Positions 279-1,518 of a stretch of 10,212 nt of DNA are shown piece after piece. The stretch lies in IMG/VR virus record IMGVR_UViG_2778261066_000004. The stretch is one strand, 5' to 3'. The notes beneath the pieces are model-generated. The model made no database searches, was not told the origin of the DNA, and saw only the letters and a list, made by a program, of their open reading frames with translations. Position numbers and translations under genes: made by a program. The first letter of the stretch is position 1. The number at the start of each line of letters is the position of its first letter. Source of the DNA: a virus (taxonomy: Duplodnaviria > Heunggongvirae > Uroviricota > Caudoviricetes).

Positions 279-1298
279 CTACTTACTGACCACAAGCGGC
301 AAATCCAGTGTTGGTGTGATTTTGGTTTTACGATCGTAAATCAACACCTGATTTTCTGTTTTGTGTCCACTGAAAATTTGTTTGTCGCGACTGCTGCCTT
401 CGTAATCTGAAATCCCTTTGGCTTTTATGTCATGAAAATTACATCCGAACGGAACGCCTGCTTTTTGCTCGGCTGCGCGTTTAGCCTGATTCCACCAGTT
501 GTTCAGCGTTTTAGCGATGACTTTCCCGCCTTTGGTTGTGCTGATCACATACTCGCATGTGCCGGAAGATACATTTCGGGCTAACTGGATCGCCGTACGT
601 AATCGCGGAGACCATTCCTTGATTTGTTTGGTGCCTGTTTTGTTTTGCTCAATGTAGATCCCTTTATCCATAATATCCTGCCATTTTAGCTCGAGAACAT
701 CACCGAGCCTTGCCGCACAAAGATAGGAAATCTCCATTGCAATGCGTAACTGTGGAATTGCTTCCGCGTATATCGCCGCATACTGTTCATCGGTTATGTA
801 AACAGTGCGGGCTTTAAGCGTGAATTTTCTGACGCCTTTGCATGGATTATTTTTCACATACCCACGCTCATATCCCCATCCGTATACGCGACTCAGGCTT
901 GCCAGCTCATGGTTTGCCTGGGTCTTGCTCTCAAGTCCCCGCTTATCCATGAAAATTCTTACTTGCTCAATTTTTACATTATCAGCAAGCACTTTACCGA
1001 ATACCGCCAGCAACGCCCTCTGATGTTGTCGATAATCTTTTTGGGTTCGGGGTGCCAGTTCTGTAAATGCAGGGGAGTCCATAAACATGTGCCATAATTT
1101 AGCGACGGTCATTATGTTGTGGAGTTTTGCTTTTTCCAGTTCATAATTTTGCCAGACTTTAGCTACGCTGGTTTCCCGTACTCTTCCGAGCCCTATAGTT
1201 CTTGTGCTTCCTTCGGGTTTCCACACGTAACTGTAACCATTCGATCTAACACGCGGTGGTAGTGCATTATCTTTTTTGTTTTTTCTTGGTCTTCCCAT
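279..1298 (-). CDS. int: Lambda-family tyrosine integrase (site-specific recombinase)
   Basis: 339-aa ORF transcribed toward the att core. N-terminus MGRPRKNKKDNALPPRVRSNGYSY resembles lambda Int MGRRRSHERRDLPPNLYIRNNGYY; C-terminus HDIKAKG...GHKTENQVLIYDR resembles lambda Int HELRSLS...GHKSDTMASQYRDD (Tyr nucleophile region), from recalled lambda Int sequence. Confidence 0.93.
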   Translation of the reverse strand: MGRPRKNKKDNALPPRVRSNGYSYVWKPEGSTRTIGLGRVRETSVAKVWQNYELEKAKLHNIMTVAKLWHMFMDSPAFTELAPRTQKDYRQHQRALLAVFGKVLADNVKIEQVRIFMDKRGLESKTQANHELASLSRVYGWGYERGYVKNNPCKGVRKFTLKARTVYITDEQYAAIYAEAIPQLRIAMEISYLCAARLGDVLELKWQDIMDKGIYIEQNKTGTKQIKEWSPRLRTAIQLARNVSSGTCEYVISTTKGGKVIAKTLNNWWNQAKRAAEQKAGVPFGCNFHDIKAKGISDYEGSSRDKQIFSGHKTENQVLIYDRKTKITPTLDLPLVVSK

Positions 1299-1518
1299 TG
1301 TTCAGCGCCTCAAAATCGGGTTCAGCGGAAACCAGCTCAGCTGCTTTTGGCATCGTTGTCAGTCCGTGTGGAATATCCCTGCGAAGAACTATTGGTTCGT
1401 TTTTAGGACCGATTACAAATGGGATGCCGTGCAGCCTTAACTGGTGTTGCTGTTTTGTGTATCGCTCGTATTTCGTGATCTATTGAATCTCTGCTGGCGA
1501 TAGAGTTAATTCGTACAT
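1267..1518 (-). pseudogene. Possible excisionase (xis) frame interrupted by an in-frame TAG after codon 12
   Basis: ATG at 1518 encodes MYELTLSPAEIQ then TAG (1482-1480); the same frame stays open for 70 more codons (…LRLHGIPFVIGPKNEPIVLRRDIP…) and ends at TAA 1269-1267, overlapping the int start out of frame as lambda xis/int do. N-terminus resembles lambda Xis MYLTLQEW. No alternative ATG/GTG/TTG start exists in the open part. Confidence 0.3.

Follow-up and report, generated by a model that had tools for sequence, protein, structure and literature searches.

Comparison with described systems

In the phages lambda and HK022, the excisionase Xis (PF07825) is encoded by a small gene located directly upstream of a lambda-type integrase gene, which it overlaps, in lambda by 23 nt. 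In Escherichia coli O157 Sakai, a gene of the prophage Sp4 was called a “putative excisionase”, and its protein was thought to be non-functional for want of a recognized DNA-binding motif (Asadulghani et al., PMC2669165). Defective (“grounded”) prophages combine a single inactivating mutation in an integration or excision gene with a frameshift and insertions of insertion sequence (IS) elements, and such a pattern of multiple lesions is known from the prophages of Sakai (PMC2669165). We analyzed a window of 10,212 bp (IMG/VR record IMGVR_UViG_2778261066_000004), which is the entire contig PTRT01000146.1 of Escherichia albertii GCA_002965745.1. It contains, in the position of xis, a DUF4224-family gene with a premature amber codon. 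We conclude that this putative excisionase gene is very probably a recent and ordinary pseudogene, in which the GAG codon of Glu13 was changed to amber within a decaying serT prophage of the E. albertii type-strain lineage (NBRC 107761 = DSM 17582, TW07627).

Several properties of the locus resemble phage lambda. The small gene lies directly upstream of the integrase gene and overlaps it, here by 32 nt, the integrase aligns with lambda Int at 25% identity (E-value of 6e-26), and the N-terminus of the interrupted frame, MYELTL, is close to MYLTL of lambda Xis. Furthermore, a winged-helix core of two helices and a beta hairpin is predicted, which would have the same topology as lambda Xis. In contrast, homology to lambda Xis was not detectable when a profile of 76 family sequences was compared using hhalign (probability 0.5%, E-value of 0.12), and DUF4224 proteins have a C-terminal EPDF-x-AL motif of their own. 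The O157 prophage at yccA/serT carries an orthologue (DUF4224, 80 aa) at the same chromosomal site and in the same order of exonuclease, DUF4224 and integrase genes; unlike the E. albertii copy with its amber codon 13, this orthologue is intact. Compared with defective prophages, the element shows no substantial difference and appears as one more instance, in E. albertii instead of E. coli. For the MerR/HTH_17-type winged-helix excisionases (mycobacteriophage Pukovnik Xis, BldC), all matches remained below the significance thresholds.

A derived amber codon in the DUF4224 gene

The features of the interrupted frame are as follows.

1267..1518, minus strand: DUF4224-family gene in the xis position, putative excisionase gene, now a pseudogene (from translation; repaired product of 83 aa)
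1480..1482, minus strand: amber codon TAG, codon 13 (from DNA alignment and the list of differences to E. coli JKHS016)
1351..1353, minus strand: ATG, codon 56, the sole canonical in-frame start past the TAG (from a codon scan)

The frame begins with an ATG (1518..1516, minus strand) and runs for 12 codons (MYELTLSPAEIQ) to the TAG (1482..1480), past which 70 sense codons follow until a TAA (1269..1267); its translation reads MYELTLSPAEIQ, stop, ITKYERY...KKKQKR, stop. Translation of the minus strand between 1267 and 1518 bears out what had been described from the DNA letters alone in the original prediction, i.e., an ATG-initiated frame, a TAG, 70 open codons and an overlap with the start of the integrase gene (position 1298). 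The additional statement that the open part has no alternative start codon holds for codons 14–55, in which neither ATG, GTG nor TTG was found, but not for codon 56. A start at this ATG gives a C-terminal tail of 28 aa without the DUF4224 domain.

Relatives of the gene are common. With the 601 bases around the frame, matches were obtained in 1,036 of 5,426 complete E. coli genomes, the annotation of which lists an intact “DUF4224 domain-containing protein” here. In the closest match, E. coli JKHS016, the orthologue is intact (83 aa) and the 601 bases differ by one mismatch (99.8% identity). The gene is flanked by a large exonuclease gene on one side and by the integrase gene on the other, within a prophage beside yccA. 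The same gene is present in the isolated phage Evi, and homologues are annotated as intact DUF4224 proteins of 80–83 aa. All orthologues begin at the upstream ATG. Beyond these, a search with an alignment of closer homologues, the reach of which is limited to the Enterobacteriaceae, yielded 12 loci in Citrobacter, Buttiauxella, Dryocola, Pluralibacter and Kluyvera, each with an intact open reading frame (ORF) of 77–95 aa and with the order exonuclease-DUF4224-integrase kept as in E. coli and phage Evi.

The position of the TAG is occupied by GAG (Glu13) in all four homologues aligned at the DNA level. Judged from this alignment, the lesion is a single G-to-T transversion on the coding strand (C-to-A at plus-strand position 1482). 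At the protein level, close homologues have Glu or Asp at residue 13, Glu being near-invariant (at least 90% in the alignment of close homologues), and in a set of 76 diverse family members, most sequences still have Glu here, as part of the consensus stretch “ELTGY”. Alignment to homologous prophages, which had been proposed as a check, hence returned a sense codon at this site elsewhere, and of the two explanations offered at the time, a nonsense mutation and a gene expressed by amber suppression, it is the former that agrees with the GAG codons, the Glu or Asp residues and the intact ORFs of the 12 enterobacterial loci. In other words, the premature stop stands where the orthologues have a sense codon, and sequence comparison identifies it as the derived state.

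To determine the distribution of the allele, exact matches to a 61-mer bearing the TAG were counted. It was absent from all 691 complete E. coli genomes that contain the segment, and no exact match was found in GTDB species representatives or IMG/VR. Four E. albertii assemblies carry the allele (GCA_000155105.1, GCA_022833075.1, GCA_002965745.1 and GCA_027566015.1), while other E. albertii strains have the intact 83-aa version. In three of them, the complete 10,212 bp of the window recur without any change, whereas in the fourth a single base deviates in 4,728 bp. A frameshift in the neighboring exonuclease gene is likewise common to the four assemblies, which include records of 4.67 Mb and 4.69 Mb (JALHKM010000002.1). 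Since the TAG is the same in four assemblies, it is real and inherited in one lineage rather than a read error. Taken together, we could show by sequence comparison that the mutation exists, that it is derived and that it is restricted to a single lineage.

Two E. coli records contain further, independent lesions of the gene, both of which are possibly assembly errors: a 72-aa variant is frameshifted and diverges after residue ~39, and in GCA_000250235.2 an ORF of 412 aa (1502–2740 of the locus excerpt) fuses DUF4224 to the integrase.

An imperfect inverted repeat (GATCGCCGTC ... GGCGGCGGTC; 1538–1575, minus strand) separates the stop codon of the exonuclease gene from the start of the DUF4224 gene and is kept in the aligned E. 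coli homologues. A promoter and terminator scan of positions 1200–1700 gave no result on the coding strand, and an Rfam scan of window positions 1–1700 returned no meaningful match.

Protein family and predicted fold

The repaired 83-aa protein matched the Pfam family PF13986 (DUF4224) with 37.8 bits (cutoff 22, E-value of 1.8e-9) and PHROG 1266, labeled “excisionase”, with an E-value of 2.4e-23. All 76 family members match Pfam DUF4224 and the PHROG excisionase families 1266/8896. No match was obtained with the excisionase models of Pfam or NCBIfam. DUF4224 proteins are about 65–95 aa long and have a predicted winged-helix core (residues 5–48). In the literature, mentions of DUF4224 were confined to genome annotations, and no functional study was found.

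An AlphaFold model based on the 76-sequence alignment reached a mean predicted local distance difference test score (pLDDT) of 75.5 and about 90 over residues 10–50. It superseded a first run with 13 close homologues, which had resulted in a single long helix (pLDDT 66). The topology of the later model, consisting of a strand, helices at residues 8–15 and 20–30 and a beta hairpin, is the winged-helix layout of the Xis/MerR type; residue 13 sits in helix 1. Fold searches placed BldC, Pukovnik Xis, SoxR, gpNu1 and RacA at the top of the small matches, all of them winged helices of MerR/Xis type and all non-significant. Searches of the PDB with the family profiles gave chance matches only.

The genomic arrangement is that of a recombination directionality factor: a small gene adjoins the integrase gene in the same orientation, and this order is conserved across hosts (E. 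coli, phage Evi and the 12 loci of five other genera). From the position overlapping the integrase gene, the PHROG label and the modeled winged-helix core, we infer that the DUF4224 gene encodes a putative excisionase or recombination directionality factor. The term “excisionase-like” of the original prediction needs to be qualified: the gene occupies the xis position, but the protein belongs to DUF4224 and PHROG 1266, and no similarity to lambda Xis was detected for it.

A conserved C-terminal motif, E-P-D/N-F-x-A-L, is found across the DUF4224 family (residues 66–72 in the window, approximately 1303–1323). It is connected to the winged-helix core by a linker of variable length and is encoded directly ahead of the integrase start. 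By analogy with lambda Xis, it may represent a tail contacting the integrase.

Integrase and chromosomal attachment site

Integrase-proximal features and their surroundings comprise the following.

279..1298, minus strand: tyrosine integrase, 339 aa, full length (from the ORF, a domain match and orthologue alignment)
78..136, minus strand: 3′ ~59 nt of tRNA-Ser(UGA), copy of the att core and integrase-proximal prophage end (from sequence comparison)
1..79, plus strand: right end of IS200C, directly against the tRNA-Ser fragment, between the prophage end and yccA (from sequence comparison)

The integrase gene has an ATG preceded by GAGG 9 nt upstream, and its product is 96.8% identical to the orthologue of E. 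coli 602687 over the full length, with no stops. At K292 (window 423–425, motif FHDIKAKG), a Lys replaces the second catalytic Arg of lambda Int (R311, HELR). The Lys of HDIK is kept in the orthologues of E. coli, phage Evi, Citrobacter, Kluyvera, Dryocola and Pluralibacter. A damaged integrase, with HDIK in place of HxxR, was considered and rejected, since the Lys is conserved family-wide, including in the isolated phage Evi, and thus represents a trait of this integrase family and not a lesion. It is conceivable, although doubtful, that DUF4224 constitutes a distinct excisionase family, the E-P-D/N-F-x-A-L motif of which would contact integrases having Lys for the second catalytic Arg.

ARAGORN detected no tRNA in the window, the tRNA-Ser piece at 78–136 being incomplete. 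In loci of Buttiauxella, Dryocola, Kluyvera and Citrobacter, a complete tRNA-Ser(tga) is located approximately 100 bp past the integrase gene. The window carries the integrase-proximal end of a lambdoid prophage, the integration site of which is the tRNA-Ser(UGA) gene serT beside yccA. In the E. albertii chromosome, the Y1 transposase gene of IS200C lies between the integrase gene and yccA. The IS200C end replaces the bacterial arm next to the att core, which accounts for the contig ending there.

Further lesions of the prophage

Positions 70–2600 of the window differ from E. coli JKHS016 at five sites only: two synonymous changes, one Thr/Ala exchange, the amber codon and a 1-bp deletion at ~1771–1773. 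The last two break genes, the deletion being located in the gene adjacent to DUF4224.

1608..4043, minus strand: exonuclease (YdfE_N/YdfE_C/Rv2179c-like), frameshifted (from alignment; in tblastn, the orthologue falls into two frames divided at 1773/1785)

The deletion at 1771–1773 changes the plus strand from ACGGGCAGG to ACGGCAGG, 290 bp away from the amber codon. The resulting frameshift replaces the last ~64 residues of the exonuclease (822/823 aa), including the end of the Rv2179c-like 3′-5′ exonuclease domain. The remaining genes of the window are intact, including those for integrase, repressor, Cro, YdaT, DicB and SIR2.

Past the end of the SIR2 gene, the E. albertii chromosome (CH991859.1, 11387–21032 of the locus excerpt) contains two IS481-like transposase genes, IS1 and vsr, an RT_UG5-nitrilase (DRT) defense gene split by IS1 into parts of 418 and 564 aa, and a Druantia DruE helicase gene reduced to its C-terminal half. 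At this position, E. coli relatives have hokD, rem, rusA, Q, a methylase gene, lysis genes and late genes; in E. albertii, the 10 kb beyond the window contain neither Q nor any lysis or late genes. The element looks like a decaying prophage remnant.

Weighing of the explanations

According to the explanation we favor, a recent pseudogene, translation would halt after a peptide of 12 residues, and the predicted winged-helix DNA-binding domain would never be made. The intact integrase would be left without its presumed directionality factor, excision would no longer be efficient and the element would thereby stay fixed. Most likely, the mutation is part of neutral decay in an already defective prophage, more than a selected step. 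Neutral decay is favored because the exonuclease is frameshifted, because an IS200 element abuts the att fragment and because IS elements and broken defense genes occupy the position at which relatives have late genes. The 70 codons past the TAG are still open because the mutation is recent, given 99.8% identity to intact alleles, and there was no time for further decay. Thus, the open codons are neither a product of chance nor evidence of read-through.

Three points weigh against this explanation. First, circles of Sp4 of O157 Sakai were detected after mitomycin C treatment, even though its putative Xis had been judged non-functional (PMC2669165). That paper names neither the integration site nor the protein family, and we infer that Sp4 is the O157 prophage at the yccA/serT site; if this identification holds, excision of such prophages may not strictly need the gene. 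Second, as far as can be judged from sequence, the UAG may be read through at a low level. Third, the picture of a decaying remnant is drawn from a view which covers only 10 kb beyond the window.

Among the alternatives, a positively selected nonsense mutation survives best, although we consider it improbable. In this case, the amber codon would have been favored as a “domestication” step locking the prophage in, by which useful prophage genes such as those for the repressor, DicB, SIR2 and YdaT would be retained. This idea, which was part of the original prediction, is plausible in so far as the genes for integrase, repressor, Cro, YdaT, DicB and SIR2 are intact and the allele has been kept in a lineage of two or more distinguishable isolates. 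However, it is indistinguishable from neutral decay, which is no worse an explanation of the mutation: the intact neighbors are equally accounted for by the recency of the lesions (five differences in 2.5 kb), the adjacent exonuclease is broken, too, and an IS-ridden prophage with no late genes nearby, being dead already, needs no locking.

It is very unlikely that a functional, N-terminally truncated protein is produced instead. NCBI annotates a “DUF4224 domain-containing protein” of 70 aa (WP_241685457.1) in the four assemblies, starting from the ATC directly after the TAG (1267–1479, minus strand), and this part alone scores 23.0 bits against PF13986, just over the cutoff of 22. However, ATC is a non-canonical start codon, no clear Shine-Dalgarno motif precedes it, and none of the orthologues starts at this position. 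In addition, the product lacks residues 1–13, which form strand 1 and the larger part of helix 1 in the predicted winged-helix core. The 70-aa call is most likely a homology-driven annotation artefact.

Continued expression of the gene, with the UAG decoded by a suppressor tRNA or a near-cognate tRNA to give full-length protein in a regulated manner or at a low level, is extremely unlikely. It would agree with the reading frame staying open past the stop and with the A following the UAG, a context which favors suppressor tRNAs in E. coli genetics. However, the recency of the mutation suffices to explain the open frame, and a second, plainly inactivating frameshift is found nearby in the next gene. 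Moreover, the in-frame stop is not conserved among homologues, as all of those aligned or translated have a sense codon at this site; the TAG occurs in a single E. albertii lineage only, and not one of the segment-carrying E. coli genomes shares it. Finally, no tRNA gene is present in 20 kb of chromosome around the locus. Expression by amber suppression, as initially suggested, is therefore not upheld.

A sequencing or assembly error in a gene intact in the organism, which might be suspected given that the window comes from a draft assembly as one of its short contigs, has next to no probability and was rejected, since the TAG and the exonuclease frameshift agree in four separately deposited assemblies, two of them multi-megabase, and since one isolate is set apart by a single base at another position.

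With the recent pseudogene as the preferred explanation, the serT prophage of the E. albertii type-strain lineage is fixed and in decay, and its putative excisionase gene has recently become a pseudogene; in the NCBI records, WP_241685457.1 should be marked as a fragment of a pseudogene. The locus can serve as a textbook case in which a frame open past a stop codon reflects recency and not read-through. While its importance mainly concerns annotation, its sole wider use is that of the amber allele as a natural null for testing the role of DUF4224 as an excisionase. Should DUF4224 proteins be excisionases, this natural null would allow serT-targeting integrases to be tested for excision in the absence of the factor.

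Other genes of the window

The CI-like repressor (5749–6156, minus strand; 135 aa) has a helix-turn-helix domain but no peptidase domain, which implies that the prophage is not directly SOS-inducible. The Sakai Sp4 repressor lacks a peptidase domain in the same way (Asadulghani et al., PMC2669165). In the early region of the prophage, a SIR2-family gene is encoded (8732–9763, plus strand; 343 aa), for which PADLOC gave weak matches (Aga_SIR2, E-value of 3.8e-6). It may be a prophage-borne defense gene, and E. coli prophages located at this site widely encode an identical SIR2 protein.
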